A stretch of 64,000 nucleotides of DNA from an uncultured Methanosarcinales archaeon (GTDB lineage: Archaea; Nanobdellota; Nanobdellia; Woesearchaeales; GW2011-AR9), in the NCBI GenBank assembly GCA_964343575.1, contig CAYFJV010000002.1, positions 69,585-133,584 on the forward strand, given 5' to 3'. The notes below the pieces were generated by a model that saw nothing but the letters and a program-made list of their open reading frames with translations, was not told the DNA's origin and made no database searches. Both the position numbers and the translations under genes were made by a program. This document shows, in pieces, positions 1 to 35,826 of the stretch (positions are counted from its first letter, which is position 1; every line of letters begins with the position of its first letter).

Positions 1-2027
1 TTGAAAAGTGGACAGTCAAGTACTAAAGATTCAAACTCTCCACCTTCTCCTGCAATATTAAAACCATTTTTGTTGTTGATTACTTTGAGCTTTTCTAGAT
101 GTTCTTGCGTGAGCGGAGTGTTGAGCCAAGTTTTATCGATTCCTTCACCTGCAATTGCTGTGAGAATGATAGTGAAGTTGTTGTTGATTACTTCTTGCAT
201 GTGCTGTACTTGCGGCTTATGCCAAAGTGGAGAGAATATTTTGAGTCCTAATTTGTCACAGATCTTTTCGATGCGTTCTCGTTGGTATCGTGAGAAAAGT
301 GCTCCCGAAACAATGCCATCGATCTTATGTTTCTCTTTTGCTCGTTTGATTGCCTTTTCTAGGTCTTTAAGCTCTTCTTCTTTCTCTCCTTGTGTTTCCT
401 GAATGATGATGGGTAATTCCATGGCTTTTGCTTGGAGCTCGACAAGTTCGGTTCCTGCGGATTGAAACATGTAAGAATGTGGGTTTTTGCTTTTGAGGGT
501 GATGAGACAAGAAAGCTCATAATTTTGCCTTTGCATAATCAGTGCTGCGCTGGTGCTATCTTTTCCTGAGCTGAACAATACTCCAAGTTTGAGATTATGT
601 TCGGGATAGAAAGTTCGAAGGTAAGCAGACTTTCCTTTGAACTTGTTTTTCTTTGCAAGCTTGCCAAGAGCACTATCAATTCTACTCCCGTACTGCGCTG
701 CTTTCTTTTTTCGTAAGGAGAACTCTTCTGAGATGCCTTTTTCTAGTGCGATTTCTCTTAAAATGTATTTTCCATAGCCTTCTGCGATCTTGTACTCTTC
801 AGGTATTTTGAGAGCGTAGTTGACTAGATCCTTGTCAAGGAAGGGAAGTCTGAGCTCAATGTTATTATCCATGGTGAGGACATCGTCACGGTAAAGGTCT
901 CGCTCATAGATTTTTCTCAGGCCCGCTAAGCATTCTTCATTGATGTGCTTTGCTTGCTTGTGCCTTTCATAGCCGGCAAAGATCTCTTCTGATCCTAAGC
1001 CAGAGAAGATCACTTTACAGCCATCCTTTTTGGCTGCTGCTGCTGCGAGGTAGAAAGTTAATGCTACTCCAACTTTTATCACATTGGAGTCTTCAATAAG
1101 CGGCACTAAGTGCTTGAGTTTAGCTGGAATTTCTTCTTCTTTGATTTTGATAACTTTATGTTTGAGCTTGAGTTCCTGTGCAACTTTAAGGGCTGCTGTG
1201 AGATCTTGCGGGACAGTTGTTTCTGAGTCCAAAGCTGCCGTGTAACAAGTGAAGTCGACATTTTTTTCCTTAAGGGTCTTTGCAATGAAGGTTGAGTCGA
1301 TCCCTCCTGAAAAAAGGAGTGCCACTTTTTTTTGAGGAAGGCGTTTTTCTATGGCTAAATCTAGAAGGGAGGCTAATTTTTGCTTTATTCCTTCCTTGCT
1401 TTCCTTATGTTCTGGTGTAATTGTGAAGAATTTTCTTTGAATTTGCTTGGTCTTCTTTGTCACAGTATCGTATACTAGTATCTGACGAGGGTTAAGCTCT
1501 TGGATGTCAATGTGGCCTAGTTTCTCGAGAGCTTTTGCTTCGGAAGTGAAGGTGAAGGCATCTGTGTTCCACGTGAAATGAAGGGGTTTCACGCCGAGAA
1601 GATCTCTAGCAATAATGATCTGATTTTTGCTCCAATAAGCAAAAGCGTAAACACCATCAAGTTCGTCTATCTTTTTGAGTTGGAATTTGTCGAGGAAGGC
1701 GTGGAGAAGCTCTGCATCGTTGTTTGCTTCTAGCTGATATTTTTCTTTGAGTTCTTGCCAGTTATAGATTTCACAGTTGGCTGTGAGCATGGTGTTTTCG
1801 TTTGATTTGAGTGGTTGTGGAATGTGGCCTACGATGGCATGCAGGGTGTGTCCAAGGATGGTGTCTCCCTTGATTGGTTTGAGTTCTTTTGCTGTTTTTT
1901 TGAGTTGAGTTGTGGTTTTGTTGGTGATTCCACAACCATCTTTTCCTCTGTTTTGGAGTGTTGTGAGGGCTTGGATAGCTTGCGCTGCTGCATTTTCTTG
2001 TCCACTGATTCCTATGATGCCACACAT
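1..2027 (-). CDS. Partial CDS running off the window start: asparagine-synthetase-like glutamine amidotransferase fused to a C-terminal DUF71/Dph6-type PP-loop ATPase domain
   Basis: Hand translation of the minus strand from the ATG at 2027 is uninterrupted to position 1. The N-terminus reads MCGIIGISGQ...NRGKDGCGI...CEIYNWQEL, a class II Ntn amidotransferase like AsnB. The AsnB synthetase PP-loop (LLFSGGIDSTFIA) and GSEEIFAGYERH...RLPFLDKDLV follow. A second PP-loop domain then reads LGVLFSSGKDSTSAALIM and ends with GEGGEFESLVLDCPLF, the hallmark MJ0570/Dph6 C-terminal motif. The ORF track shows nothing here because the ORF has no stop within the window. Confidence 0.7.
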   Translation of the reverse strand, partial: MCGIIGISGQENAAAQAIQALTTLQNRGKDGCGITNKTTTQLKKTAKELKPIKGDTILGHTLHAIVGHIPQPLKSNENTMLTANCEIYNWQELKEKYQLEANNDAELLHAFLDKFQLKKIDELDGVYAFAYWSKNQIIIARDLLGVKPLHFTWNTDAFTFTSEAKALEKLGHIDIQELNPRQILVYDTVTKKTKQIQRKFFTITPEHKESKEGIKQKLASLLDLAIEKRLPQKKVALLFSGGIDSTFIAKTLKEKNVDFTCYTAALDSETTVPQDLTAALKVAQELKLKHKVIKIKEEEIPAKLKHLVPLIEDSNVIKVGVALTFYLAAAAAKKDGCKVIFSGLGSEEIFAGYERHKQAKHINEECLAGLRKIYERDLYRDDVLTMDNNIELRLPFLDKDLVNYALKIPEEYKIAEGYGKYILREIALEKGISEEFSLRKKKAAQYGSRIDSALGKLAKKNKFKGKSAYLRTFYPEHNLKLGVLFSSGKDSTSAALIMQRQNYELSCLITLKSKNPHSYMFQSAGTELVELQAKAMELPIIIQETQGEKEEELKDLEKAIKRAKEKHKIDGIVSGALFSRYQRERIEKICDKLGLKIFSPLWHKPQVQHMQEVINNNFTIILTAIAGEGIDKTWLNTPLTQEHLEKLKVINNKNGFNIAGEGGEFESLVLDCPLF

Positions 2028-2079: not shown

Positions 2080-2814
2080 TTAACTAAAGTTTTCATTCAA
2101 TTTAAAAAGAAATAAATGAAAGATGGCATTTACTAAAATGGGATAAGATGCAATTTGTGGTTCAAAGATATTCTTGTAATCTTCATTAGTTAATCTCATT
2201 TCTTTGTAGATCTTTCCTTTATTGAAGATTAACAACTTGATTATCCCTTCATCACTCACGAATTCAAAATTGAAATGGGCTAAGGAATTTCTAATCTTAT
2301 GATCTACAAACTTCAAAATAATTGGATCAGCAACTTGGTTTTTCTTAAAGACTTCCTGGATTAGTACAATTCTTGCTCCATTTGTGTCAAGATGACTTAA
2401 GGTTGAGTCTTGGAGATAAAGTTCCTTGGCCTTCTCCTTATCAAGAAAATAACTTAAAAGATCCAAGATTGATTCAAAGTGAAAAATAGTTGTGGAGATA
2501 TAAGAGTATAGTGCCGAGCTACCATCAAGAAAATAATTCTTCTTTTTCTCTCCAAGATTATCTCTGTGGTACCTTGTTATTTCTGCAACGGATCTTTCTA
2601 ATTTCTGTATGACCCTGGCCCTCTCATTTCTCTCAATTATCTTTGGGTCTTTGGGAGGACATTTTTTTAAAAGTTCATCAATAATTAGCTGGATTTCCTG
2701 GTTTATCTTTTGAACAAACATATCCCCTTGTTCTCCGAGTATGTCTGTTAGGTAAGCAGCAACATCTTCAGAATTTCTTACATTCAAAACCGCCATTTTT
2801 TTGATAAACCTCAA
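2080..2814 (-). CDS. Hypothetical protein, very AT-rich; C-terminal R-x4-H (RNSLAH) motif is reminiscent of HEPN
   Basis: 244-aa ORF with no recognisable family. It contains IRNSLAHFNFEF near the C-terminus. The stop overlaps the start of the downstream DRG GTPase gene. Confidence 0.35.
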   Translation of the reverse strand: MRFIKKMAVLNVRNSEDVAAYLTDILGEQGDMFVQKINQEIQLIIDELLKKCPPKDPKIIERNERARVIQKLERSVAEITRYHRDNLGEKKKNYFLDGSSALYSYISTTIFHFESILDLLSYFLDKEKAKELYLQDSTLSHLDTNGARIVLIQEVFKKNQVADPIILKFVDHKIRNSLAHFNFEFVSDEGIIKLLIFNKGKIYKEMRLTNEDYKNIFEPQIASYPILVNAIFHLFLFKLNENFS

Positions 2815-3908
2815 TCTAAATGAATCTCTAAGATATCTTCATCTGCTAACTTATGATGTAACATCACACGCTGCGCATCAAACTTTGCACTCTTTCCCCA
2901 GACTCTTGCGAATCTGAAACGCTTTGGAAAGTCTCGATGGAGTTTGTTACAAACGTCTCGAATAGTAGCAGGTGATTGAATGATAAGCGGCTCTTTCATA
3001 TCAGCTTCTTTTCTTGGCTCTTTGAGATAGATACGCATGAACTGTAGCTTGTCAAAAATCATATCTTTGAGTTTATTGATATTCTTCCCAGTATGCGCAG
3101 AAAAGGCAATGTCTGCGCCAATTTCCTTTTTTACTTTAGCAAGTTCTTTTCTTCCAACTAAATCTTCTTTGCTTATACTGATGATTGCTGGCAAATATTT
3201 TTTGTGCCCCTCAATACAATCAATAAAATCGTCAATGTCTATTTTGCTTCGAATAAGAATCTCTGCATTATTGATCTTAAATTCTCTGAGGATTCTCTTA
3301 AGAGTTTCATCGGGCACATCAAGTTTGACCGTCTTTCCGATTTGCAATCCACCTTTAGCAGTCTTTTTGATGTAAACTTCTGGTTTTGTTTTATTGATAC
3401 GAATGCCCGAATCTTTGATCTCTTTGAGCAATGCTTTGTGATGCTTTGGTGTGGTAACATCAACCACCATAAGAACAAGATCTGCATTTCGAATTACTGC
3501 CAGCACTTCTTTTCCTCTTCCTTTCCCACTTGCTGCTCCTTCTACAATACCAGGAACGTCTAGAATTTGAATCTTAGATTGCTTATAGTTCATCATCCCT
3601 GGGACAACACTGAGTGTAGTAAAAGCATAAGCTCCCACTTCTGATTTTGAGCCAGTAAGTTTGTTGAGAAGCGTAGATTTTCCTGCACTTGGAAATCCTA
3701 GTAAGAGAACACTCGCATCCCCAGATTTTCTCACCGAATATCCGTGATCAGATTTTCCGGTTTTTTTAGAAGATCTGCCCGCTTCTTTTTCTTTAAGAAT
3801 GGCAATTTTAGCTTTAACAAGACCAATATGGTGCTGAGTTGCCTTATTGTATTTAGTCTTCTTAATTTCGTCCTCGAGTTCTTTGATCTTCTCTCGATAG
3901 CTGGCCAT
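2811..3908 (-). CDS. DRG/Obg-family GTP-binding protein with C-terminal TGS domain
   Basis: G1 P-loop GFPSAGKSTLLNKLTG, G3 DVPGIVEGA and G4-like motifs are present. An N-terminal coiled-coil region and a C-terminal TGS-like region (KEPLIIQSPATIRDVCNKLH) match the archaeal DRG architecture. Confidence 0.8.
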   Translation of the reverse strand: MASYREKIKELEDEIKKTKYNKATQHHIGLVKAKIAILKEKEAGRSSKKTGKSDHGYSVRKSGDASVLLLGFPSAGKSTLLNKLTGSKSEVGAYAFTTLSVVPGMMNYKQSKIQILDVPGIVEGAASGKGRGKEVLAVIRNADLVLMVVDVTTPKHHKALLKEIKDSGIRINKTKPEVYIKKTAKGGLQIGKTVKLDVPDETLKRILREFKINNAEILIRSKIDIDDFIDCIEGHKKYLPAIISISKEDLVGRKELAKVKKEIGADIAFSAHTGKNINKLKDMIFDKLQFMRIYLKEPRKEADMKEPLIIQSPATIRDVCNKLHRDFPKRFRFARVWGKSAKFDAQRVMLHHKLADEDILEIHLD

Positions 3909-5964: not shown

Positions 5965-6507
5965 ATGTTTGAAAATCTTTGGCAGGGCCTTGCTGATTAC
6001 TTCTACCAGATCATTGCTGGCTTTATTATGCTCTTGGTTGGTTTCGGTTTGGGTGTGCTTGCAAAGCGCTTTAGCAGAAAGGGGCTCCAAGAAATTGGTT
6101 TTAACCGCATTTTGCGCATCATTAATGTTCCTTACAATGGAGAAGAGATTGTAAGTTCACTTCTTTCTTACATTATTTACTTAGTAACTATCATCTTTTT
6201 TTTACAGCAATTGGGAATAACAAGTATTGTACTGTATTTATTGCTTGGAGCAGTGCTTATGATCATTATTCTTAGCTTCGTAGTTGGTCTTAAAGATGTG
6301 ATTCCTAATTTTATTGCAGGTCTTTTCTTGCGAGGGAAAAACTCTTTGCATGTTGGTATGCGAGTGCAAGTAAAAGAAATTAGCGGGAAAATTGATAAAA
6401 TTGGACACCTTGAAACAGAAATTGAAACGGAGCAAGGAGATATCCTTTACGTGCCAAACAATTTGTTCTTGCGCTCTAAAGTGCTTGTTAAGAAGAAGAG
6501 AAAGTAG
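5965..6507 (+). CDS. Small MscS-like mechanosensitive channel protein
   Basis: Three N-terminal TM helices are followed by an MscS beta-domain-like region (MRVQVKEISGKIDKIGHLETEIETEQGDILYVPNNLFL). Confidence 0.55.
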   Translation: MFENLWQGLADYFYQIIAGFIMLLVGFGLGVLAKRFSRKGLQEIGFNRILRIINVPYNGEEIVSSLLSYIIYLVTIIFFLQQLGITSIVLYLLLGAVLMIIILSFVVGLKDVIPNFIAGLFLRGKNSLHVGMRVQVKEISGKIDKIGHLETEIETEQGDILYVPNNLFLRSKVLVKKKRK

Positions 6508-6823: not shown

Positions 6824-7144
6824 CTAACTTTTCATCTCTTCAATAAGTTTCTCTTGAGCTTGCTTAATGGACTCTTTAATCTTTTCTTCTTGTTCTTCTA
6901 CCGTTTTCAAACGAAGTTGCATGAGCTTTTTCTTCTCTTCAAGCTCAGAGAGAAGTTCTTCTTTTTTCTTGGCAAGCATAAGTTTTCCCACTATTTTGTA
7001 GACTTGCTCGCTGGAAGGAAGTTCTTTGAGTGCAGATTCAAATTCAAGAAGTTGTTGCTGGATCTGTCCTTTCTGCAAAAGATGTTGCTGTAAGTTTTGT
7101 TGTAACAATTGCAACTGCATTGCATGTGTTGAACTCATTTTCAT
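6824..7144 (-). CDS. pfdB: Prefoldin beta subunit
   Basis: Q/L-rich coiled coil, beta-hairpin segment (SEQVYKIVGKLMLA), then a second coiled coil, at the typical length. Confidence 0.75.
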   Translation of the reverse strand: MKMSSTHAMQLQLLQQNLQQHLLQKGQIQQQLLEFESALKELPSSEQVYKIVGKLMLAKKKEELLSELEEKKKLMQLRLKTVEEQEEKIKESIKQAQEKLIEEMKS

Positions 7145-7722: not shown

Positions 7723-8769
7723 TTAGGAGAGAAAAAGAAGCTCTCGAGGAAACTTAGTGATTTCCCTTGCTTTTTTGTTTTTGAAAAGTAAGGTGTCTTC
7801 AAGTCTAAGGCCGAACTTGTTTTTGTAGTAGAGTCCAGGCTCTATGGTAAAAAGTTGATTCTCTTTGACTGTTTGCTGGGGATCTGCTTTTATGGAAACT
7901 CTTGGATTTTCATGGACTTCAATTCCTATCCCGTGGCCAAGCGAGTGGGTGAAGAATTTTTTGTCTTTTTTGAGAATGGATCTACAATGCTTCGCGATCT
8001 CTTTGAATGATCTGTTTGTTGTTGCTTGTTGTTTTGCTTCATATTGTGCCTCTTGAAGAAGTAAGAATTTTTCTTTTTCTTCTTTTGTTGGTCTGCCGAG
8101 ATAGAACATGCGCGTCATATCTGAATTGTAAAGGGTGTACCTTGCTCCCATATCTATGAGTAGAAATCCTTTTTTGAGTTTAGTTTTACTGGTGATGTGA
8201 TGTGGCACTGTTGCGTTTGCTTGATTGGCAACAATTGTTGGGAAAGCAACTTGCGCCCCTTGTTTTCTCATGTGGTTTTCAAGGAAAAGGGCGATGGAAA
8301 GCTCTGTTGGAAAACGCTTTCTTGTAAAGTTCTCTGTGAGTTCTTGAAGCGCCTTATCGGCGATACTTGCTGCTTTCTTGAGCTTGGAGATCTCTGTCTC
8401 TGTCTTTGTTTCTCTTAAATCGCTAAGTTCTTTTGAAAAGTCAATTATTTTTGCTTTGGGGTAGATCTTTTTGAGCGTCTCTTGGAAGGAAACAGTGAGT
8501 TTGCTTTTATTGACTGCAAGACGCTTGATTTTAGTTGACGTGAAGGCCTTTTGCCATTCTTTTTTTAGCTGCCTAATTTCTAGGCCCTTCTTTCTGGGAA
8601 CATGGTCTAATTTGGTGATGTGTAGTGTTGCTTTATTTGGGGTTATTTGTAGCAAGGCATAACTGAGGTCTTCTTGCGCTAAATAAGTAATGTTTGGATC
8701 CGGGAGGGTGAGAAAGAGAAGATCAATCTTTTTGTCTTTGAGTTGCTTTTGGAGAAGTTTGAGTTTCAT
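7723..8769 (-). CDS. M24 family peptidase (Xaa-Pro aminopeptidase-like)
   Basis: Pita-bread fold motifs are present (DMGARYTLYNSDMTRMF, HSLGHGIGIEVHE, and E...E ligands in the C-terminal part). Confidence 0.8.
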   Translation of the reverse strand: MKLKLLQKQLKDKKIDLLFLTLPDPNITYLAQEDLSYALLQITPNKATLHITKLDHVPRKKGLEIRQLKKEWQKAFTSTKIKRLAVNKSKLTVSFQETLKKIYPKAKIIDFSKELSDLRETKTETEISKLKKAASIADKALQELTENFTRKRFPTELSIALFLENHMRKQGAQVAFPTIVANQANATVPHHITSKTKLKKGFLLIDMGARYTLYNSDMTRMFYLGRPTKEEKEKFLLLQEAQYEAKQQATTNRSFKEIAKHCRSILKKDKKFFTHSLGHGIGIEVHENPRVSIKADPQQTVKENQLFTIEPGLYYKNKFGLRLEDTLLFKNKKAREITKFPRELLFLS

Positions 8770-8920
8770 AATGTTGGAAAGAAGGGGGCTTTGCGTATTT
8801 AAAGGTAGCTTTGTGGGGGGGCCCTAAGTAGATTAAGAGATTTGAAGTTTTATTTTTGGCTTTTGTAGACGATCAGAAAGGATTATAAAGCCAAAAATAA
8901 TGGTTTTCCTTGAGGGATTG

Positions 8921-10147
8921 ATGAAAAAACTAGTTCTTCCAAACGGCTTAACAGTACTTTATCAAAAAAAGAAAAGCAAGACCGTTGTAGTGCAAGCGCT
9001 TGTTAAGGCAGGAAGCAATCATGAGCCCGAAGGGGAGCGTGGTGTTGCGCACATGATGGAGCATTTGCTTTTTGAGGGGACTTTCAAGAGGCCAAGCGGA
9101 AAGTTGATTGCAAATGAAATTGAGAAGCTTGGTGGAGATTTTAACGCTTATACGAGCTTTAATCGAACAAGCTATTATATCAAGGTTTTGAACAAACATT
9201 TTTCTATTGCTATGGATGTACTTGGAGATGTTTTACAAAATCCCTTATTCCAGAAAAAAGATTTTGAACGCGAACGAGGGGTTGTGCTAAAAGAGATCAA
9301 CATGATCTACGATGATCCCCGTTCTTATCAGTGGGTATTAATGCAAGGAAAGTTGTATCGTGAACATCCTGCTAGGTTTCCGAGTTACGGTAGCGTTGCG
9401 GATTTAAAGGAGATGAAAGTGCGCACCGTTCGCTCTTTTTTTGAGAAACAGTACGTGGCGAACAACATGATCCTTTGTATCGTCGGGAACGTACGTGATT
9501 GGAAAAAAGTGGTCAAACGTGAGTTTGGCATGATGCGTTCTGGTCCTGTGAAAGCTTTGCGCTATAAGAAGGAGAAACCTTTGCGTAAGAAGCAAAGCGT
9601 TGTTGAGATTCGTAAAACCTTCAATAGCCATTTAGCGATGGGTTTTCGCACAGTTACTCGTGAGCATAAGGATAGTTATGTGCTTGATGTGATTCAAGGG
9701 ATTTTAGGTCGTGGACAAAGTGGAAGGGTGTTTGCTGAGCTTCGTGGGAAGCACGGGCTTGCTTATGATGTGGGAACCGAACACATTGCAGAAGAAGATC
9801 ACGGCTATTTTGCGCTTTATGCAAGTTTTAGTAAGGAGAATAAAGCTAAGGCTGAACGCTTAATGCGCGGCGAGATTAAGAAGTTGCTTTCGGTAACTGA
9901 AGATGATATTAAAGAGGCTAAAACCTACCTCGAGGGAGAATATTATTTAGGTTTAGAAGAGCCGCAGCAGCTTGCAGACACCATGTTATTCTGGGAGCAG
10001 GTAGGCAATGCACACTGGCTTGAGAAATATTTGAAAGAGATTGAAAAAGTGACTGTTGCTGATGTTCGTCGTGTGGTTCGTAAGTATTTGCAGTATCCTA
10101 CTGTTGCTTTTATTACCGGGAATGGTTCTGGGAGGAAGAAGAAGTGA
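8921..10147 (+). CDS. M16 (pitrilysin/insulinase) family zinc peptidase
   Basis: Inverted zinc motif HMMEHLLFEG. The track ORF starts at 8900, but a TATA box at 8881-8890 favours the ATG at 8921 (MKKLVLPNGL). Confidence 0.75.
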   Translation: MKKLVLPNGLTVLYQKKKSKTVVVQALVKAGSNHEPEGERGVAHMMEHLLFEGTFKRPSGKLIANEIEKLGGDFNAYTSFNRTSYYIKVLNKHFSIAMDVLGDVLQNPLFQKKDFERERGVVLKEINMIYDDPRSYQWVLMQGKLYREHPARFPSYGSVADLKEMKVRTVRSFFEKQYVANNMILCIVGNVRDWKKVVKREFGMMRSGPVKALRYKKEKPLRKKQSVVEIRKTFNSHLAMGFRTVTREHKDSYVLDVIQGILGRGQSGRVFAELRGKHGLAYDVGTEHIAEEDHGYFALYASFSKENKAKAERLMRGEIKKLLSVTEDDIKEAKTYLEGEYYLGLEEPQQLADTMLFWEQVGNAHWLEKYLKEIEKVTVADVRRVVRKYLQYPTVAFITGNGSGRKKK

Positions 10148-17645: not shown

Positions 17646-20600
17646 TTACTTCCCCATAAACGCGCCCAGACCCACTTGCTTATCTTTGGCTTTACCAAAG
17701 ACGGTGTCAATGTTATGTTTAAGCAGATTAATGGTTTGCTTCAAGTAGGGAGAAAAATCGTATTTCTGCGCAAGCTCAAGGCTTGGTTCAAGATACTTCA
17801 CTACCGATCCTTCAGAGATGGTAAAAATTATCTTTCCTGTTTTACAAGTATGGCACTTATTGCTTATCGGTGGGCGACGATATTTCGTGTTACATTTCCC
17901 GCAACGAAAGCCTTGCATAGAAAACTTTCTAAAATTCCCTTTGATATCCGCTAAAAAGTGTCGCTGGATTACCATTCGAGCAACATCATCCATATCAACT
18001 GCGCGCACTTTTCTTGCGATTTCCATTTGACCGAATAATTTTTCTTTCATACTCGGCAAAATTTTGTAGGCTGAGCAGTTTACTCCTTTGTTAAAGTTGT
18101 CAACATGGTGTGTAAAACCAAAACCTTCATACTGTTCTGGAGTATCAAGCTTGTGATCAAGCTGTACGATTTTCTTTTTTTCTTTACCATAACGCACTTC
18201 CCAAGGAGCTTTCATTTCCAACGCTGCTTCATAAAGTTCTAAAGGATAACGCCATTCCATATCAACTCCTAAGACTTGGTCGTCAACCTCACTTGGAGAA
18301 AGTACTGGGGTGAGTACCAGCGCAGCATCCATGGTTGATCCCCTACTACTTGGAAGATATCTCTTGGAGAAATTAAGTAAACCATCAAGAAGGAGCATTA
18401 CTGCTGCTTCGTCACCATCGCAGTCCCTTCGCAGTCCCGCATGGTACATTGGGTGCGTAATAAGCCCTTGCGTGTGTGCAAAACCAATAATTCTCCCCAC
18501 CGTTCCTGCAGAAATGTGCGGAGCTAAACCAATTACTAAATGACCCACAAGATCTTTTTCATTTTTTACTTTATAGAAGGGTTTGAGACCATAGTGGTTG
18601 ACCAGCATATCATCAATAAACTGCGCTACCCTTGTGAGCACTTGCGCAGCTGATTCTTCAAGCACATCAACGGCAGGCAAGATGACATCTTGTGGCCTCA
18701 TTTCCAAAATTTGGTCGTCATTTTCAAGGTATTTTCCATGAATGTCTCTTTCATAACCAAGTTCTTTGAGTCTTTCAATACTTGTTCCAATCTCTTTTGG
18801 CTTGAAATGGGTAAGAGGTAGTTCAGTACAATCGTAGCGCGTGGTGCCATCTTTATTTACGGCAACGTTGTGTTTTGCTCGCAAGATGCCTTTCATTAAG
18901 TGTTCAGCAATTTTTTCTCTGTTGCTTGTCCCACGGACCCCTTTGATAAGATCGGGAATGATTTTGGTATTGAGTTTCTTTTTGAGAGCATCTACAATTT
19001 CGATAATCTCAATCTTTTGTAAGAGTTTTTCTTGCTCAAACTCTTCTGTTGGTTCTCCTGTTTGATGGCAACAACGAAAAGGACTAAGCTTACCTTCTTT
19101 GGTCTTGAACATTTTAATGGGAGCGTTAATCTCTCCCTCTTCAAGAGCTGCTTGAATGCTTCGCATTCTTCCTCCTTCTTCTCCAACTGGAAAAAGTACG
19201 TGAGGAGAGCCCGTCATTTTGCGCATCTTGGCTTTTTCTGGTCTTCCCATTCGCGCGCCGATAAAAGTTCCTGCCTTATCACGCTGTTTTATGGGCGCGT
19301 GCTGATTAAGGTATCTAAGAGGATTTTTGTAGCTTCCTTCTTTGAGAGTTTTGAGAGAGAGAGAAAGATTTTTGATCTCTTCTAGCGTTGAAAAATTGAG
19401 TAAGAAAGAGAGTACTTGACTCTCTGTTTTCTCAAGTACAATATTTTCTTTATTGATTAATTGATGAGGGATCCCTAGCAATTCGAGTGCTTGCTTTGCT
19501 TCTTGGCAAGCTTGCTCTTTTTTGTCAAAAGGAATGATGATTTTTTTGATCTCTTCGCTCTTTTCTTCCTTCTTTAGTTTTGAAGAGGAGAGAATAGATA
19601 TAAGAGTTTGAAATTGTCGCATAGCCAGTAGTTTCCAAAAGTAAGTAAAGTCAGAGTGTAATGGTACTTGAAGCTGCTTGCTAATCGTCTTTGCTTCTTG
19701 AAATGTTGGTGAGAAGAAAAGTGGCTTTTGGATGTATTTGAGAAAATTTTCTGTATCTATTTTGAAATCACTTGCAGCCTTGCTTAAATGCTCTTTAGTT
19801 GGAATCTCTACTTCGATTGCATATTTTTCTCTTATTGTTTTTTCTACTTCTTGCGCCCACCATTCTGGACAATACCCCGCGGGGACCAGTTTGTGTCCAT
19901 TCTCAGAAAAATCTCCATAATTAAACAAGATATCTCCAAGGTAAAGTACTTCCTCAACCTCGTTAGCATGTTGTTTTGCTAGCTCTTGGGTAGGAAGTTG
20001 TAACACATTTCCATTATTGAGCCGTACAATCGGTCCTTCAAGCGTGTCGCAAACAGTTACCGTCGCTGCTTTTCCGGGTCGCTCTACTTTCATTTGCGTT
20101 CCGATGGCAATGAACTTGTCAAGCACCACAAGCGTCGCTGGGTGTAAAGCTGCTGCAGAAAACCCAGAGGTTCTTCCTCTTCCGTAACGAAGACGAAATC
20201 CTCCCTCTCTTACTGGATGTGTAAGTACGGGTCTTCCTGCAACCATATCTGAAATAAAGGTATTGTTTGCCTTTACCTTTACTTCTTCCTCTTTTCCCTT
20301 TGCATTTTTGTCTTTTGGTCCTGCTTTTTTTTCCTTCTTCTGACCGTGCTGCGCATGAATCTTATCTTTAAGATCAATAAATTCTTTGATGAACTCCCAC
20401 TCTAAATCAAAATCCTTTCCCCACTTGCTTAGTCGTTTCCATAGTTTTGGTGCCTTTTGACAAAGTCCTTCTGCTACTACCAAACACATTCCTCCACGAA
20501 TGAGGTTTGTAGCAATTCTTGGAAGGTCTTTATAATTAGAAACCTCAATTTTTTCAGTTGGATCCCCGTCAACTTCAACAGGCAAATGAGAGAGCATAAA

Positions 20601-21251
20601 GTTTAACTCTTCATCACTTGGATGGTATTGGAGGTTGGTTACCCGATCATGATAATCATGCACTTCTGCAGTGTAACGTTTTACTTCGGTTTCATTCGGA
20701 TCGTAAGGAGCATAACCCATCTTTACTCGAACATAATCAGCAAGAATAACACTTGTGGAGGAAGCGGTACCCCCTGCTCCTCGAATTGGTCCAGCGTATC
20801 TTAGCGCAAGGTATTCTTTTCCATCCTTTCTTTTCTTTACTTCAATACCGATGAAGCCCTCCAAAGGTGCTGCCACAATCCCAAGTGTGAGGTAGGCAAA
20901 GCCTGTTCTGATTCCCACTTCAATTGCTTCTTTTTTGTTTTTGAATTTACAAAATTTTTCTTTGGCAACTTCTTCGGCGATTTTGAAACCGACGCGCCAA
21001 TCAAGCGTTCCGTATTCTTTTTCTAACTCTTGAACACGCTCAGGAATATTTGTTTCTAGAATTTGGGGGGCCACAATGCTCACAAGTCCAAGCACCCGAT
21101 CTGCCATGGTGTTTGCCAAGATGATTTCTGGTTTGTCTTCGGGATCGAGTTGTTTTGCTCTTGCTTGGTTAGCGATGGTGTAGCAGATGTCGACATCCTT
21201 TCGTAAATTTTCGAAGTATTTACTAATGGTTGGGGAAGCGACTATTGCCAT
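17646..21251 (-). CDS. polC: DNA polymerase D large subunit (DP2)
   Basis: 1201 aa with conserved DP2 segments throughout, including the catalytic region (GDEAAVMLLLD) and C-terminal Zn fingers (CGKCNTKYRRPPISNKCHTCK). Length is typical; no intein is apparent. Confidence 0.95.
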   Translation of the reverse strand: MAIVASPTISKYFENLRKDVDICYTIANQARAKQLDPEDKPEIILANTMADRVLGLVSIVAPQILETNIPERVQELEKEYGTLDWRVGFKIAEEVAKEKFCKFKNKKEAIEVGIRTGFAYLTLGIVAAPLEGFIGIEVKKRKDGKEYLALRYAGPIRGAGGTASSTSVILADYVRVKMGYAPYDPNETEVKRYTAEVHDYHDRVTNLQYHPSDEELNFMLSHLPVEVDGDPTEKIEVSNYKDLPRIATNLIRGGMCLVVAEGLCQKAPKLWKRLSKWGKDFDLEWEFIKEFIDLKDKIHAQHGQKKEKKAGPKDKNAKGKEEEVKVKANNTFISDMVAGRPVLTHPVREGGFRLRYGRGRTSGFSAAALHPATLVVLDKFIAIGTQMKVERPGKAATVTVCDTLEGPIVRLNNGNVLQLPTQELAKQHANEVEEVLYLGDILFNYGDFSENGHKLVPAGYCPEWWAQEVEKTIREKYAIEVEIPTKEHLSKAASDFKIDTENFLKYIQKPLFFSPTFQEAKTISKQLQVPLHSDFTYFWKLLAMRQFQTLISILSSSKLKKEEKSEEIKKIIIPFDKKEQACQEAKQALELLGIPHQLINKENIVLEKTESQVLSFLLNFSTLEEIKNLSLSLKTLKEGSYKNPLRYLNQHAPIKQRDKAGTFIGARMGRPEKAKMRKMTGSPHVLFPVGEEGGRMRSIQAALEEGEINAPIKMFKTKEGKLSPFRCCHQTGEPTEEFEQEKLLQKIEIIEIVDALKKKLNTKIIPDLIKGVRGTSNREKIAEHLMKGILRAKHNVAVNKDGTTRYDCTELPLTHFKPKEIGTSIERLKELGYERDIHGKYLENDDQILEMRPQDVILPAVDVLEESAAQVLTRVAQFIDDMLVNHYGLKPFYKVKNEKDLVGHLVIGLAPHISAGTVGRIIGFAHTQGLITHPMYHAGLRRDCDGDEAAVMLLLDGLLNFSKRYLPSSRGSTMDAALVLTPVLSPSEVDDQVLGVDMEWRYPLELYEAALEMKAPWEVRYGKEKKKIVQLDHKLDTPEQYEGFGFTHHVDNFNKGVNCSAYKILPSMKEKLFGQMEIARKVRAVDMDDVARMVIQRHFLADIKGNFRKFSMQGFRCGKCNTKYRRPPISNKCHTCKTGKIIFTISEGSVVKYLEPSLELAQKYDFSPYLKQTINLLKHNIDTVFGKAKDKQVGLGAFMGK

Positions 21252-21425
21252 AACAATTTTTAGGGATTTTCTGCTTTATATTTCTTGTTCTTGTCCAATG
21301 GTCCAGTGCAGATAGTGAGGATGGAATATAGTCTTGCCTGGTCTTACTATTGTTCTTTCTAGGCTAAAGGAGATGAGGAGAGAATGCGAGAAGGGAAAAA
21401 GAAAATGAAAAAAAAGGATATGAAA

Positions 21426-21833
21426 CTATACCCAAGATACTAAAATTGCTGCAGCAACTAAAACAGTTACTAACCAATACGCTCCATTAAGGAAAAAGAG
21501 CTTAACATCTTTTCTCTCCCAAAGCACAGGGCCCAAAGCAAGCGGCATCATAAACCCTAACCAAAGCCAAAAACCAAGCATGAGCCCTTGTGGAACTGTT
21601 GCTGCTCCTGTAAGATTTACAAAACGGTCAAGCACATAGACCATAACTAAGGTTGCTAGAAAGCCAATGAACATGTGCCCAGCCATACCTTCTTTTTGCG
21701 CCTTTTGCATATCTTTTTTCTTGAGGCCGGTTAGTTTCATCCACATTGATCCAAAGACTTTTGGGTGATACCAGACCATTCCAAGTACCATTGCAGCAAG
21801 CGCTGCTACTAAAACAGAGACATAGTTTACCAT
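21426..21833 (-). CDS. Hypothetical integral membrane protein (4 TM)
   Basis: Hydrophobic 135-aa core from MVNYVSVLVAALAAMVLG. The upstream Lys/Asn-rich extension in the track ORF is probably not translated. Confidence 0.45.
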   Translation of the reverse strand: MVNYVSVLVAALAAMVLGMVWYHPKVFGSMWMKLTGLKKKDMQKAQKEGMAGHMFIGFLATLVMVYVLDRFVNLTGAATVPQGLMLGFWLWLGFMMPLALGPVLWERKDVKLFFLNGAYWLVTVLVAAAILVSWV

Positions 21834-21925
21834 TGTATTTACCTCTTTTTGTTTATTCTTTTGTTTGTTTTTTAGATTTGTTTTGCTACTTATCTTATTG
21901 AGATAGTTAGAAGAAAGAATTTGCA

Positions 21926-23716
21926 CTATATAAATTTCATTACTTTTACTTCTCTCGTCTTTAAGTTAATTACTGGTACCCTCCCTGGCTGCGGATCATG
22001 GCCTAACTTTTCTTGAAACTTTGTTCTTGCTTGCCAACAACTGCCACTCATCATGGTAATTCCCTTATAATTTGCAATGGCAGAATAATGGATGTGGCCA
22101 GTAATCATAATATCTGGAACTTTTTTGATAAGGAGCGGATCTTCGTTGTGAGAAGGTAAGTAAGGAGTTGATTTGAATGCAGGTGCGAGATGTCTTCGCT
22201 TGAGTAAGTATTTCATAATGAGGTCTGCTCGATGATAGCCACCGTTGTTTCGAATGCTATCAACATTTGCTACATAAAAATCAAAACTATAACCATGGTA
22301 CATGAGCACATTAATGCCAGGGAAATCCTCGGTTTTAGCAATGTTAATCATAGAAGGGTTGCTGACAAGCTCAACGTTTTCCATCTCGTGAAGATCTTCG
22401 GTGTATTCTTTATAGAAAACTGGCTGGGGTTCTGCTAAGTGCACAACGTCGTGGTTTCCTGGACAAATAAAGATCTTTTTATCTTTAGGAATCTCTTTGA
22501 TGAGGTCAGCAAAAGCCTTGTACTGTCCTTCAATGGTTTGAATAGTAAGCTCATCTGGTTGTTTGGGATAGATTCCTACACCATCAACCACATCTCCAGC
22601 AATGAAGATGTACTTTACTTTTCTAGCAATATTTTTTTGATCTTCTGATCCGACTTCTGCTCTTGCCCAAGAGATGAACTTTTTGAAGGCATCTTCCATG
22701 AAATAGCTCGATCCCACATGGATGTCTGAGAGAAAAATCGCATATTCTTCTTTAGGCGCCTTTCGCATTTCTTTGGTGCTTGGTACATCTGGCCAAACTA
22801 TTTGATCAGCAAAAATAATATCTCCGCCACTCACTCCCGTTATCCCAATTACTTCATCAAAAGTAAGTTCTTTTCCTTGTTCTAAAAGATCGGGCTTGTT
22901 CTTACTGATGAGAATTTTGATATCTCCTGTAATATCTTCAACGGTGAGCAAAAGATTTCCATTTTTAGTTTCAGCAATTTCGCTTACAAGGCCAATGACA
23001 GCAATGGTTTCTCTCTCTCTTTTCTGCCTTACTCTACTAATGCTGGTGACATTTTTCATTTCTGGGTGTTGGCGAATTACTTTCTCTAGGAAGTAATAAC
23101 GGGTTTTGAAAATGTTGGCAAAATCTTTTACAGCGTATTTCTTAGAAATGGTTTCAAAAGAATAGACGACCTCATATTGGTACTCTTGCTGAATTTTTTC
23201 AAGAACTGCAAGGTCCTCTTGGGCATCAATAGTAGTTACTGTTTCTTTGAGTTGAATGCTCTGGCCATCAAGAGCTTTTTCTAAGCTGCTCTTTTCTACT
23301 TCTGTTTCAAGACTAGAAAACACTTCTTCATGACTGCTCGCTGCACTGCTTGCAAGGTTAGAGCCTTGGGAGCTTGCTGCTGCTTGTGGAACTTGAAGAG
23401 AAGAAGAGCGTAAATCTTGAAGTTGCGCCTCGTAACGGTCAAAATCTCCTTGACGCTCAAAATCAACTCGATATTTATCTGCTTCATACCAATCAACAAA
23501 GCTTTCCTCTTTTCCCACAATGTCAGCATAATCTGGAGTGAGCACCAACATGTCTTGCTCTGCTTCTAACTTAGCAATAAGCTCAGCTTCAATCCCTTGC
23601 TCAAGCTGTTCTTTGCTTAAAAGTACACCCTTTTCGAAGAGTTTTTTGATTAAATCTTCTTTGCTTTGCGTCATTTTATTTGATTCTGCAGTTGCAGAGA
23701 TGTGGGAATCTCCCAC
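21926..23716 (-). CDS. polB: DNA polymerase D small subunit (DP1), 3'-5' exonuclease of the calcineurin/Mre11 phosphoesterase type
   Basis: Metallophosphatase motifs (GDVVDG, ICPGNHD, GHIH) sit in the C-terminal half; the N-terminal OB-like region is typical of DP1. Confidence 0.9.
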   Translation of the reverse strand: MGDSHISATAESNKMTQSKEDLIKKLFEKGVLLSKEQLEQGIEAELIAKLEAEQDMLVLTPDYADIVGKEESFVDWYEADKYRVDFERQGDFDRYEAQLQDLRSSSLQVPQAAASSQGSNLASSAASSHEEVFSSLETEVEKSSLEKALDGQSIQLKETVTTIDAQEDLAVLEKIQQEYQYEVVYSFETISKKYAVKDFANIFKTRYYFLEKVIRQHPEMKNVTSISRVRQKRERETIAVIGLVSEIAETKNGNLLLTVEDITGDIKILISKNKPDLLEQGKELTFDEVIGITGVSGGDIIFADQIVWPDVPSTKEMRKAPKEEYAIFLSDIHVGSSYFMEDAFKKFISWARAEVGSEDQKNIARKVKYIFIAGDVVDGVGIYPKQPDELTIQTIEGQYKAFADLIKEIPKDKKIFICPGNHDVVHLAEPQPVFYKEYTEDLHEMENVELVSNPSMINIAKTEDFPGINVLMYHGYSFDFYVANVDSIRNNGGYHRADLIMKYLLKRRHLAPAFKSTPYLPSHNEDPLLIKKVPDIMITGHIHYSAIANYKGITMMSGSCWQARTKFQEKLGHDPQPGRVPVINLKTREVKVMKFI

Positions 23717-23788
23717 AAGAACATCTAAGACTTTCTCACTCTTTTTAGTAAGCTACACCACCCCTAGCGCAACCCTTGAGCTAATGTT

Positions 23789-24991
23789 TTAATCCTTTAA
23801 TTGAATGGAACGTTCAATAAGTTCTTTAAGTTTTGCTTTAATACCTTCTTCTAAGGACATAGAGATCTCTCTTGTTCGCCCATACCTTCCTTTGGAAACG
23901 ATTTTTGCATTGATGATCCCCAGCATATCAAACTCGGCTAGAATATCAGAGACTCTTCTTTGGGTAAGCACATTGAAACGTACTTTCTTACAAAGTGTTT
24001 GATACACATCATAAATCTCTCCAGTGTAGATGGTCTTTTTCTTTGGTGCAAGTAGGAGGATTGCGTAGAGGACGGCTTGAAATTGCTTTGGTTGGCTTAC
24101 TACGGCATTAATGATCTTATCTGATTCAATTTTTTTCTCTGCTTCATCAAGGTGCTCTATCTCAATTGTTTTAGAAGTGCTTCTCTCTGCTAATTCTCCT
24201 GCAACTCTGAGAAGATCAATTGCTCTTCTTGCATCGCCATGTTCTCTAGCGGCGTAGGCAGCACATTTTTCGATAACTCCGGGTTTGACAACCTCTGGTC
24301 GAAAAGCACTTTGCGCCCTTTTTCTTAAGATGTCCTGGATCTGTAAGGCATTATAAGGAGGAAAGATAAGTTCTTCTTCGCTCAGAGAAGATTTTACTCT
24401 GGGATCTAAGTTCTCTGCAAAAATAAGATTGTTAGAGATTCCAATAAGACAAATTTGTGCATTTTTGAGCTCTGAATTAATCCTTGTAAGATTATAGAGA
24501 ATCTCATCTCCTATTTTTTTAGTAAGCTGATCTATTTCATCAAGGACAAGCAAAATAAGCTTCTTTTCTTTGTCAACAAGAGAATAGAATATATTGTAGA
24601 CTTCATCTGTTGGAAGACCGGTGGCAGGAACTTCTTTACCAAACTCCTTAATGAGCTGGGCTATGAGCCGATACTCAGTATCTGCTATCCTTTTTAATTT
24701 ACAATTTACATAGATGCTTTGCAAAGGAACTTCGTTTTTCTTTGCAATCTCTTCCATTGACTGTAAGATGTATTTTATAGAGAGTGTTTTCCCGGTTCCT
24801 GTTTTTCCATAAATAAGAAGGCTAGAGGGTTTTTCTAAACGCAGAGCGGGAGCTAAGATGTTTGCAACCTCTTGAATAAGTTCCTCACGAAATAAGACTT
24901 CTGATGGAACATAGGCAGAGAGAAGATACTCTTTACTTAAAAAGATTGAATCTTTCTTAAGAAAGTTTTCGAAAAAATCTGTAATCCCCAT
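23789..24991 (-). CDS. cdc6: Orc1/Cdc6 replication initiator (AAA+ ATPase with C-terminal winged helix)
   Basis: Walker A motif GKTGTGKT, Walker B motif LVLDEID, sensor motifs and a C-terminal wH domain. Confidence 0.95.
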   Translation of the reverse strand: MGITDFFENFLKKDSIFLSKEYLLSAYVPSEVLFREELIQEVANILAPALRLEKPSSLLIYGKTGTGKTLSIKYILQSMEEIAKKNEVPLQSIYVNCKLKRIADTEYRLIAQLIKEFGKEVPATGLPTDEVYNIFYSLVDKEKKLILLVLDEIDQLTKKIGDEILYNLTRINSELKNAQICLIGISNNLIFAENLDPRVKSSLSEEELIFPPYNALQIQDILRKRAQSAFRPEVVKPGVIEKCAAYAAREHGDARRAIDLLRVAGELAERSTSKTIEIEHLDEAEKKIESDKIINAVVSQPKQFQAVLYAILLLAPKKKTIYTGEIYDVYQTLCKKVRFNVLTQRRVSDILAEFDMLGIINAKIVSKGRYGRTREISMSLEEGIKAKLKELIERSIQLKD

Positions 24992-25790
24992 TGGAAATGC
25001 CCCACCCCTTAGTTTCTTCTGGAAAGCCTTTTTTGAGAAAATATTCTCTTTGGCTTGAATTGTTGAAGTGGTTTGTTTCCTTTAAATCTTTTTTGTTCAT
25101 TGAAGAATGAAGTAGAAAAGAAGTATATTCTGTTCTCTTTACTTGAATGGTTGTTTCGTAGTTGTTTTATCATTGTTCTTTTGCGTTGGGAGGAGAGATG
25201 AACTACACGAGTTAAATGCACTCTTTTTCTTTTCCTTTTTCTTCTCATTTTTTCTTTTATTTGTTTCTCTCTTGTTTGTTTTCTATTTATATTATTTATT
25301 TCAATATTGTAAATAATAATAATAATAATAAGCTTAGCTAAAAAAGAAGATTTAGAAAAAGCATTTGCGATTTGAGAACTGCGCTTAACTTTTCAGAGAG
25401 CAGTGTTTCTTTTTTTAGGTTTTTTTCTTTTTTCTTCTAACTCTAAAAATTTCTTTTTCTTTTCTAAACAAAGAGAAGATTTCTTTTCCTTTCTTACTTT
25501 TCTTTGTTTTCCTTTTTTTTTTGGTTTTTTGAAAAAGAGTTTTCCATGAGAAGAGAGGGGGATGGTGCGTTTGTGCTTGTTAGTGTTTGGAGAAAAGAAT
25601 ATTGGTTTCTTAGTTTTCTTCTTTTTGTGTTGTTTTTGACTATTCTTTGAAAGAATTTGAATGAATTGTATCGAAGGCGAGCCAAGTTTTTAACAAGTTT
25701 TTCTCTTCTTTTTTCTTTTTCTGACAATTTTTCCTCTTTTCCGGAAACATTTAAATAATAGTTTTGGCTGTTTTTTGCTAATGGTTCTTG
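24992..25790. other. Candidate chromosomal replication origin (oriC)
   Basis: An ~800-bp non-coding region lies immediately upstream of orc1/cdc6 and just beyond the orc1-DP1-DP2 gene array, the conserved Pyrococcus-type arrangement. It is extremely A/T-rich with long T/A tracts and an (AAT)6 microsatellite. It also contains GGAAA-type elements (CTTCTGGAAAG at about 25016 and the palindrome TTTCCGGAAAC at about 25738) reminiscent of mini-ORB cores. Confidence 0.45.
25312..25331. repeat. (AAT)6 microsatellite inside the putative origin region
   Basis: Directly visible as aataataataataataat. Confidence 0.9.
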
Positions 25791-26626
25791 AGGCATTGCT
25801 GAATCCATTTTCTGTTAAGAAAAAACCCTGGGAAATGTTTTTTGCGGGAATGCTCTATGCCATTGTGGGAATGCTTCTTTCTTACTTTGTCTTTCGACAG
25901 CTTTCTGGCTTTCTCATGGTCTTTCTTATATCAATAGCAGCTATGCCTTTGGTCTATAATGCTATTAAGAGAGAAGAAGAGATTGATGTTCAAGTTAAAG
26001 GAGAGTGGCGTATTCTCAAAGAGCACAGTAGAGTTATCTTTTTTCTCCTCTACTTTTTCTTAGGAATAGTTATTAGTTTAACCATTGCTTACGTTGTTTT
26101 ACCTTCGGCGATGGTGAGTGAAATCTTTTACATTCAAGCAAATGCGATTCAAGATGTTAATAACAGTGTTTCAGGAAATCTGGCTTTGTTTGGTTTGTTT
26201 AAGGCAATCTTTTTGAATAACCTCAAGGTACTTTTCTTTTGCCTTGTCTTTTCTTTCCTTTATGGGATGGGAGCTATCTTTATTCTTACTTGGAATGCTT
26301 CAGTTGTAGCGGCAGCAATTGGTAATTTGATAAAGACAAGCCTTGCAGATGCTGGTGCGAATTTAGGTATGCAAAATATTGCTTTATACTTTAATGTAGG
26401 AGCGTTTAGCTTTATGAGGTACATGACCCACGGTCTTCTGGAGATTACTGCCTATTTTGTTGCTGGTTTGGCAGGAAGTATCATTTCTATTGCCGTAATT
26501 CGGCATAATCTTGAGAATGAAGCAGTACTTTATGATGCGCTTGATTTAATCTTCATTAGTTTAGGTATTTTGCTTATTGCTGCAATTGTAGAAGTCTATG
26601 TAACACCACAGTTCTTCCACGCTTGA
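25775..26626 (+). CDS. Polytopic membrane protein, DUF95/SpoIIM-like
   Basis: 283 aa with about 6 TM helices and no soluble domains. The family assignment is from memory. Confidence 0.4.
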   Translation: MLMVLEALLNPFSVKKKPWEMFFAGMLYAIVGMLLSYFVFRQLSGFLMVFLISIAAMPLVYNAIKREEEIDVQVKGEWRILKEHSRVIFFLLYFFLGIVISLTIAYVVLPSAMVSEIFYIQANAIQDVNNSVSGNLALFGLFKAIFLNNLKVLFFCLVFSFLYGMGAIFILTWNASVVAAAIGNLIKTSLADAGANLGMQNIALYFNVGAFSFMRYMTHGLLEITAYFVAGLAGSIISIAVIRHNLENEAVLYDALDLIFISLGILLIAAIVEVYVTPQFFHA

Positions 26627-26654
26627 AGTTTAGTTTATAGCTTGTTTGTTTTTT

Positions 26655-27440
26655 CTAAAGAATTTTTACTTTCCCTGGAAGATTTTGAAAGATTTCTCCC
26701 ATCTCAAGCATACGCTCAATTGCTTTTTCTGTTTCAGAATTGTTAAGGAGATCAATAAGCTCCTCAATAGCAACACCATTTCCTTGATCTAATTCTTTTA
26801 TTTTCTCTCTAATGAGCTCATTGAGTTGTACTTTTTGCCCTAAGTTTTCAAGGCTTTGATTGATTTCTTCTTTGACTTCACTTATTTCGTCCTTATTTTC
26901 TATCTCAATGGTTTCTACTGTAATCTTTTCATCCTCTTTTTTCGCTTCTTGTTCTGTATGCAATTGCTCTGAGTGTAAAGCTGGCTCTTGAACTGCTGCT
27001 TGGTGTTTTTCTTTATCTACTTGGATCTCTTCTTCTTTTTGTTCTTCCTTATCCTGTTTAAGTTCAAGGGCCCTTAGCTCAAGCCACTCTTTTTCAACTA
27101 CTTTTAGAATTTCAGGTGCTAAATATTTTTCCTGGTTAAAGACCCGCACTCTTGCGATGCAAAGGGCAATGTCACCAACGTTGAGCTCTTCAAGACGTTT
27201 GTGCTCTTCAAAAACTCGAGCTAGAATTTGGCCTGAACCATCGTCGAGAAGCACAGAAGTAGTTGAACCATTTTTGGCAATAGAAAGAATAATGGCAATA
27301 ATGTTTACTCGGTAGAGTTTTTCTTGCTTTGTTGTGAGCAAAAAGTTGGCTTGTCCTTCCTCTTCTGTAATATATTCTCCAGAAATGATAGCCCCAATGG
27401 TGGTCTTTCTTGCTGTGTGTCTGGTGTAAGAGGCTTGCAT
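26655..27440 (-). CDS. OB-fold plus C-terminal winged-helix protein (RPA32/Stn1-like architecture), acidic linker
   Basis: The N-terminal ~110 aa have a beta-rich OB-like pattern (LYRVNIIAIILS...VLLDDGSGQILARVFEE...VGDIALCIARVRVF). A Glu/Lys-rich linker follows. The C-terminal ~50 aa are wH-like (VAIEELIDLLNNSETEKAIERMLEMGEIFQ). The gene is adjacent to MCM. Confidence 0.35.
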   Translation of the reverse strand: MQASYTRHTARKTTIGAIISGEYITEEEGQANFLLTTKQEKLYRVNIIAIILSIAKNGSTTSVLLDDGSGQILARVFEEHKRLEELNVGDIALCIARVRVFNQEKYLAPEILKVVEKEWLELRALELKQDKEEQKEEEIQVDKEKHQAAVQEPALHSEQLHTEQEAKKEDEKITVETIEIENKDEISEVKEEINQSLENLGQKVQLNELIREKIKELDQGNGVAIEELIDLLNNSETEKAIERMLEMGEIFQNLPGKVKIL

Positions 27441-27479
27441 AATCCTTTGGAACTTTTTGTGGTTTTAATCTTTGTTTTT

Positions 27480-27625: not shown

Positions 27626-27636
27626 GCCGCCTTTGC

Positions 27637-29670: not shown

Positions 29671-29820
29671 GTAAGCTTCCTTTTGTTGTTTAGCTCAAGT
29701 AATCTTAGCAGCCTTGCTCATTAAAAAGCTTTGCTCCATACCAAATATGTCTTTTTGAAAATGTGTTTTAGAATGTCAAGAAGAGAATAAGACAGAAATA
29801 AAGGGAGAAAAATAAGAAAA

Positions 29821-35823: not shown

Positions 35824-35826
35824 CTT

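Follow-up and report, generated by a model that had tools for sequence, protein, structure and literature searches.

A predicted Dph6 carrying an AsnB-like amidotransferase module in a Woesearchaeota-type archaeon

The DNA considered here is a stretch of 64,000 nucleotides (contig CAYFJV010000002.1, positions 69,585 to 133,584), called the window below. It is ordinary archaeal DNA with a G+C content of 40% and encodes PolD, Cdc6, MCM, TBP, TFE and RPA. At its very beginning, on the minus strand, lies the visible part (1–2027; residues 1–675 of 706) of a three-domain open reading frame (ORF). Judged by sequence comparison and a structural model, this gene is the predicted Dph6 of a Woesearchaeota-type DPANN archaeon, and an amidotransferase module resembling AsnB is part of the same polypeptide. 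Archaea and eukaryotes share the conserved diphthamide on elongation factor 2 (EF-2), and it is unsettled where the ammonia for the final step of its synthesis comes from. A natural fusion of this kind is the simplest object for asking whether glutamine can feed Dph6. In addition, annotation names the AsnB-like part and its many stand-alone relatives asparagine synthase, and in the genome-reduced DPANN archaea they are booked under amino-acid biosynthesis.

Domains and residues of the fusion protein

The frame opens with an ATG at 2027–2025, followed by the codon of Cys2 (2024–2022), and runs through 675 codons without a stop down to base 3, leaving the window at base 1; the remaining two minus-strand frames over the same segment contain many stops. 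A preliminary description of this DNA, made from its letters alone, had likewise reported a single uninterrupted frame, leaving its strand unstated, and had noted that it continues past the window. This is indeed the case: the last 31 codons lie past base 1, and the complete protein (P0001, 706 residues) is 100% identical to the window translation over residues 1–675. P0001 is encoded on another public contig, which matches the window at 100% over 5,008 bases. A stop or frameshift between the domains, which the same description had considered, does not exist, as the public contig is identical and the fused frame is kept in relatives. A frameshift, an assembly chimera, a chance ORF and a pseudogene are excluded by the open frame, the closed alternative frames, the identical contig and the more than 100 orthologues that keep the frame.

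Profile searches with Pfam and NCBIfam place a class II glutaminase first, an AsnB-type PP-loop domain second and Dph6 third, which agrees with the three assignments proposed earlier; the motifs quoted at that time (MCGIIG, NCEIYN, FSGGIDS, VLFSSGKDS and GEGGEFESLVLDCPLF) are all found in the translation. The glutaminase domain, of the N-terminal nucleophile (Ntn) type, covers residues 1 to about 200 (1428–2027, minus strand, as for all features of this gene). It is matched by GATase_7 (E 2.9e-20, residues 71–168), by GATase_7 and GATase_6 together over residues ~53–168, and in alignments to E. coli AsnB (PDB 1ct9), PurF and 120 relatives. The adenylating AsnB-type PP-loop domain, which belongs to a non-canonical archaeal clade, follows at residues ~210–475 (603–1400) and is recognised by Pfam Asn_synthase (E 8e-47, residues 218–360 and a second stretch), by superposition on 1ct9 and by the motifs of its clade. 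It carries the first PP-loop, S240-G-G-I-D-S245 (1293–1310; reverse complement TCAGGAGGGATCGACTCA), and the motif S342-G-L-G-S-E-E348 (984–1004), in which the codon of Leu344 occupies 996–998. The Dph6 domain (DUF71, diphthine-ammonia ligase; residues 480–675 in the window, 3–590) matches Diphthami_syn_2 (PF01902) with E 7e-55 and passes the curated cut-off of TIGR03679, Dph6_archaeal, with 232 against 197.3 bits, even though the query was without the last 31 residues. Here the second PP-loop, S486-S-G-K-D-S491, lies at 555–572. An enzyme of the GAT-QueC (glutamine amidotransferase–QueC) type was rejected, as QueC reached 29 bits and covered the PP-loop only.

An AlphaFold2 model of the fusion protein, built on 66 relatives and compared with the PDB, forms one compact body with a predicted local distance difference test score (pLDDT) of 88.1 and a predicted template modelling (TM) score (pTM) of 0.86. 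Residues 1 to ~475 superpose as a single unit on 1ct9 (target-normalised TM 0.79–0.80, root-mean-square deviation (rmsd) 2.9–3.5 Å), and the C-terminal domain matches PF0828 and PH1257 in fold (target-normalised TM 0.93–0.95, rmsd 1.4–1.7 Å). In this comparison, no solved PDB chain was found to span all three domains. The AsnB-like part finishes with ...YLRTFYP, the end point of its stand-alone relatives, and the Dph6 part starts with LKLGVLFSSGKDS, the start point of stand-alone Dph6; between them lie about five conserved linker residues, and the junction is rigid.

By curated hidden Markov model, signature residues and modelled fold, the C-terminal domain is predicted to be an orthodox Dph6. 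It aligns to PH1257 with E 2.4e-51 and to PF0828 with E 3.4e-49. Eight residues of PF0828 (S44, Y45, E78, Y103, Q104, E183, E186 and E188) are conserved in Dph6 orthologues and located at the modelled EF-2 interface (PMC3541065). They align to S518, Y519, E552, Y581, Q582, E661, E664 and E666, all invariant or nearly so in the family; the last three belong to the signature E661-G-G-E-F-E-S667 (27–47). Residue conservation was counted over 120 relatives from three-domain clusters, and the second PP-loop reads S(S/G)GKDS in every one of them, with SSGKDS rather than SGGKDS in 84. Two other identities of the DUF71 part, a generic AsnB C-terminal extension (an alternative raised in the preliminary description) and a member of the B12-salvage DUF71 subfamily, are both rejected: the part passes TIGR03679, carries the residues that mark Dph6 and is modelled with the fold of PH1257. 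The domain shares its PP-loop, EGGEFE, EF-2 interface residues and fold with stand-alone archaeal Dph6 (PH1257, PDB 2d13; PF0828, PDB 3rjz/3rk0/3rk1). Those proteins, however, have ~220–230 residues and use free ammonia, whereas the window Dph6 has the N-terminal AsnB-like addition. In yeast Dph6 the additional part is different, namely two RidA-like domains at the C-terminus in place of this N-terminal module.

No second copy of Dph6 or AsnB was found in the window plus 10 kb, and dph2, dph5 and the EF-2 gene are absent among the larger window ORFs that were scanned, some ORFs being left unscanned. According to a 2012 table, the complete genomes of Methanohalophilus mahii and Methanosalsum zhilinae have a single DUF71 gene each (PMC3541065). 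Therefore, in these organisms the fused protein can be the sole Dph6.

The N-terminal module has the two-domain fold of E. coli AsnB and human ASNS (6gq3), with the same relative position of glutaminase and synthetase. It also has in common with AsnB the residues Cys1, Asn74, Glu76 and Asp98, the SGGxDS PP-loop, D..RxD and Lys449. In the glutaminase domain, the Cys2 column holds Cys in 119 of the 120 relatives and a single gap; Asn84-Cys85-Glu86 (AsnB Asn74-Gly75-Glu76) and Asp104 (AsnB Asp98) are invariant in all 120. By these residues the glutaminase looks functional. In the second domain, the first PP-loop is SGG(I/V)DS in 120/120 relatives, with a single Leu at the variable position, and D377, R380, D381 and the phosphate-binding K441 (Lys449) are invariant.

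Other positions depart from AsnB. Arg49 of the E. coli enzyme, which binds the glutamine alpha-carboxylate, aligns to Leu62, and this Leu is invariant (120/120), as is the adjacent His63 (119/120). The human equivalent, Arg-48, is part of a conserved glutamine-site network (PMC6748925). Alignments to 1ct9 and 6gq3 place Glu348 of E. coli AsnB unambiguously at Leu344: SGLGSEE is found in 120/120 relatives, as opposed to the canonical SGEGSDE, and among the readable motifs of 150 representatives this position is never Glu. Since a literature search returned no match for 'Glu-348', data on the equivalent human residue, Glu-364, were used instead; its variants E364A and E364Q are inactive (PMC6748925). 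The position of Asp351 is an invariant Glu347, a conservative change; its human equivalent, Asp-367, binds the aspartate amino group (PMC6748925). Finally, nothing in the protein corresponds to the final ~80 positions of the AsnB profile. NF006949 (AsnB) reaches 219.7 bits where its cut-off is 499, with the match stopping at profile position 458 of 554.

A genome scan with one genome per species revealed three tiers of motifs. The bacterial tier mostly has SGEGADE and RQKEQFSDGS, its canonical genes carrying mostly Glu and in a few cases Asp at the Glu348 position. The broad archaeal tier has GQGADELF and KKAxQYGS. The tier that holds the fusion protein is characterised by SGLGSEE, RDLYRDD and RKKxAAQYGS (the latter instead of RQKEQFSDGS), and across the genome loci of this clade Leu, Ile or Met occupies the Glu348 position. 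In other words, the residue patterns suggest a module under strong selection yet non-canonical. Having lost Glu348, Arg49 and the ~80 end positions of the AsnB profile, the module is probably not an asparagine synthetase. The earlier view of the middle domain as an AsnB synthetase thus stands as to the AsnB-type PP-loop, but an ordinary AsnB synthetase it does not appear to be.

Alternative architectures and gene neighbourhoods

The preliminary description could not place the three-domain arrangement in any family. In fact, a fusion of a class II glutamine amidotransferase, the Asn_synthase PP-loop and DUF71 has been known since 2012 (de Crecy-Lagard et al., Biol Direct 7:32; PMC3541065), where COG0367/AsnB was found N-terminal to DUF71 in Methanohalophilus mahii, Methanosalsum zhilinae and Ca. 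Nanosalinarum, and glutamine hydrolysis was proposed as its ammonia source. One of the reviewers (Aravind) asked which PP-loop takes the ammonia and what the role of the AsnB-like PP-loop might be (PMC3541065). The domain order in one polypeptide is the same as in the window protein, which differs in coming from a Woesearchaeota/Nanoarchaeota-type lineage absent from that paper. Our literature search for Dph6 together with a glutamine amidotransferase had this paper as its sole match and no later one.

The counts that follow from genome and metagenome scans are samples, not censuses, and are to be read as lower bounds. The three domains, whose co-occurrence the preliminary description suggested checking, are found together in the protein database: the best 120 clusters (90% identity) all share the architecture, so that at least 120 clusters have it, with lengths of 650–746 residues and 59–71% identity. 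Their sources are Woesearchaeota and Nanoarchaeota, and many are labelled 'diphthine--ammonia ligase' by NCBI and JGI. Named genomes carrying the fusion in the genome scan include Nanoarchaeota, Woesearchaeota, Iainarchaeum and Methanospirareceae. Two three-domain relatives, P0135 (1005 residues) and P0184 (899 residues), have an additional N-terminal or internal segment of 200–350 residues.

The three-domain form is not the only one. The best 150 representatives (50% identity) comprise 53–58 three-domain proteins, 18–23 with the PP-loop domain and Dph6, and 48–59 with the glutaminase and the PP-loop domain. At least a dozen of the PP-loop + Dph6 proteins are full length, having Met and a short leader ahead of the PP-loop; examples of such glutaminase-free fusions are a 473-residue Woesearchaeota protein and a 500-residue Methanosarcinales protein (289 bits with the Dph6 model). 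A split glutaminase gene beside them is rejected, as no glutaminase gene was found within 10 kb in loci L009, L012 and L022. There is also a stand-alone family with the PP-loop domain only (ASN-only), of ~295 residues, abundant in Woesearchaeota and counting at least 120 clusters. Active-site motifs stay conserved in both the glutaminase-free and the PP-loop-only forms. In terms of nearest neighbours of the PP-loop domain, the 150 representatives show the four architectures intermixed; therefore, glutaminase and Dph6 have been gained or lost repeatedly. At L022 (9548–11440), a 630-residue PP-loop + Dph6 protein has at its N-terminus a degenerate remnant of the glutaminase C-terminus, and this protein looks like a snapshot of glutaminase loss.

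As for names, the ASN-only family is called 'asparagine synthase C-terminal domain-containing protein' by NCBI. Six of its members, all of ~295 residues (P0283, P0286, P0308, P0311, P0373 and P0376), are 'diphthine-ammonia ligase' at JGI and have no PF01902, the name being probably transferred from fusion proteins.

Dph6 and the AsnB-like module also occur side by side as separate genes. The ASN-only and dph6 genes are divergent and 30–50 bases apart in L137, L148, L163 and L164, and one gene separates them in L141 and L162; at L120, dph6 lies 1.5 kb from a glutaminase + PP-loop gene. The surroundings of the fusion gene help to interpret these pairs. Upstream of it in the window is the gene of a DRG-type GTPase (MMR_HSR1 and TGS; 2811–3908, minus strand), a conserved neighbour of the fusion gene family, and further on come genes for an MscS-like protein (5965–6507), a prefoldin-like protein assigned by position only (6824–7144), an M24 peptidase (7723–8769) and an M16 peptidase (8900–10147). 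Loci L162–L164 have the same order of DRG GTPase, MscS-like protein, prefoldin, M24 and M16 (L162 stops before M16). Since the gene order of the window is kept there, the dph6/ASN-only pair stands where the window has its fusion gene. Among the scanned loci, there was no dph6 near Gln-type or canonical (Glu-type) AsnB-like genes. The neighbours of the ASN-only and glutaminase + PP-loop relatives that were looked up belong to the translation apparatus and other information processing, and none of them matches an amino-acid-biosynthesis family.

Between the fusion gene and the DRG gene lies a co-directional ORF of 244 residues (2080–2814, minus strand) with no significant family and a sub-threshold HEPN match (E 9e-4). 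It is probably co-transcribed, since it shares 4 bases with the DRG gene and only 52 bases separate it from the fusion gene.

Two further genes recur at the related loci. Stand-alone dph6 is repeatedly accompanied, directly after it or close by, by a small gene of 128–140 residues of the CTP_transf_like (RibL/FAD-synthetase-like) type, at L162 2951–4050, L163 3887–4956, L164 3883–4949, L148 652–1757 and L141 11810–13739; the assignment is by Pfam match for L162–L164 and by sequence resemblance only for L148 and L141. A conserved operon of the two genes is possible. A DUF371 gene lies within ~300 bases of an ASN-only gene in four loci: L008 2317–2715 (a Woesearchaeota genome), L013 10802–11209 (a Methanosarcinales genome), L020 5163–5579 (a contig labelled Woesearchaeota) and L169 4346–4723 (a metagenome contig).

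The architecture itself is already known and common, and is no discovery. New here are the loss of Glu348, Arg49 and the C-terminal segment, the glutaminase-free fusions, and the unfused neighbouring pairs of ASN-only and dph6 genes; the 2012 paper has neither the Glu348/Arg49 loss nor these fusions and pairs.

Possible roles of the AsnB-like module

The AsnB-like module tracks Dph6 through fusion, fission and neighbourhood; this association recurs and does not hinge on the glutaminase. As glutaminase-free fusions and unfused neighbouring pairs exist, it is the AsnB-like PP-loop module, rather than the glutaminase alone, that is the conserved partner of Dph6. The explanation that we favour as a whole, with a probability of about 0.5, has three parts. 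The Dph6 domain would adenylate and then amidate the diphthine carboxylate on EF-2, in the same way as stand-alone Dph6. The AsnB-like module would be a dedicated partner of Dph6 and not an asparagine synthetase. In the three-domain form, the glutaminase would yield ammonia from glutamine and deliver it through a putative AsnB-type tunnel. A dedicated ammonia source had been put forward in the preliminary description, too. It is a reasonable idea and a published hypothesis (PMC3541065), but the link to Dph6 holds without a glutaminase as well, in both fusions and pairs.

Several points weigh against this explanation. The activity of archaeal Dph6 awaits experimental confirmation (PMC8305020). 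With Arg49 lost, glutamine binding by the module appears uncertain. In AsnB, ammonia travels through a tunnel that stops at the enzyme's own synthetase site. Because the partnership exists without glutaminase, ammonia supply is not the whole story, and because both PP-loops are intact, the first site probably has a chemistry of its own, which the favoured explanation does not name. Many ASN-only genes have no dph6 within 5–10 kb, the more distant ones having none within 5 kb. Lastly, the module passes the cut-off of TIGR01536 (asparagine synthase), if narrowly, with 282.9 against 267.1 bits.

It is tempting to go one step further and to suppose that the Leu-type AsnB-like PP-loop protein in general is not an asparagine synthetase but an unrecognised partner of Dph6, acting when archaea make diphthamide or in some related modification of their translation machinery. 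We put this forward tentatively, as a claim with somewhat less than an even chance. If it is true, the 'asnB' of DPANN metabolic reconstructions is misassigned. As a residue needed by asparagine synthetase is lost, such reconstructions may overstate biosynthetic capacity.

The narrow TIGR01536 pass also speaks for an alternative, namely a true bifunctional enzyme in which a glutamine-dependent asparagine synthetase of 475 residues and Dph6 either share the glutaminase or are merely co-translated. The entire AsnB fold is there, the PP-loop, D377, R380, D381 and K441 are conserved, the 2012 paper proposed such an enzyme (PMC3541065), and studies of Woesearchaeota class genes of this kind as asnB and find them expressed. 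However, all 120 relatives have Leu where the human E364A/Q variants are inactive, Arg49 is lost, the NF006949 score is far below its cut-off with ~80 end positions unmatched, and the relatives' neighbours are information-processing genes, none matching an amino-acid-biosynthesis family. We therefore consider bifunctionality rather unlikely. It is worth pointing out that the AsnB fold is found with altered synthetase-site residues in beta-lactam synthetase (1jgt), carbapenam synthetase (1q15), TsnB9 (7ylz) and lasso-peptide cyclases, which shows the scaffold serving other reactions that activate carboxylates. These enzymes of secondary metabolism have a low identity to the window protein (15–18%), and none has a link to Dph6.

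Alternatively, the AsnB-like PP-loop might catalyse a further ATP-dependent amidation or ligation of its own in the translation apparatus (EF-2, another factor or tRNA), acting on the same target or in the same complex as Dph6, the glutaminase being an optional accessory. The survival of the PP-loop module after glutaminase loss and as the ~295-residue stand-alone family (at least 120 clusters), with its motifs kept, is consistent with this, as is the company of the distant ASN-only genes, which neighbour aIF5B, PUA proteins, the DRG GTPase, prefoldin, Pcc1, L37ae and eRF1. Moreover, the active site may be more open owing to the loss of the AsnB C-terminal segment. Against this, no candidate second modification is known, diphthine carries one carboxylate, and none of the present results identifies a substrate; since the surrounding block of genes is conserved widely among archaea, position alone says little. 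A second reaction of this sort thus seems unlikely to us. An artefact, either a pseudogene or two adjacent genes wrongly joined during sequencing or assembly, has next to no probability given the uninterrupted frame, the identical public contig, more than 100 orthologous clusters with the same frame, architecture and invariant catalytic motifs, and the conserved junction of ~5 residues.

Other genes of the window

In the remainder of the window, replication and transcription genes (PolD DP2, DP1, Cdc6/Orc1, MCM and TBP) are clustered on the minus strand at 17646–30384, with a possible replication origin close to the Cdc6 gene. The ORFs at 39380–41809 and 50944–52539 have no Pfam match. On the plus strand, the segment 42715–60908 begins with an ORF of 2,141 residues (42715–49140), followed by small and medium ORFs with hydrophobic-looking N-termini, which could encode pilin-like or cell-surface proteins. 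At 32421–36816, on the minus strand, are three co-directional genes, encoding a Peptidase_U32 protein (777 residues), a ThiF-type E1-like protein (344 residues) and a PP-loop protein of the ATP_bind_3 family (329 residues), and this trio looks like a cluster for tRNA thiolation or modification.

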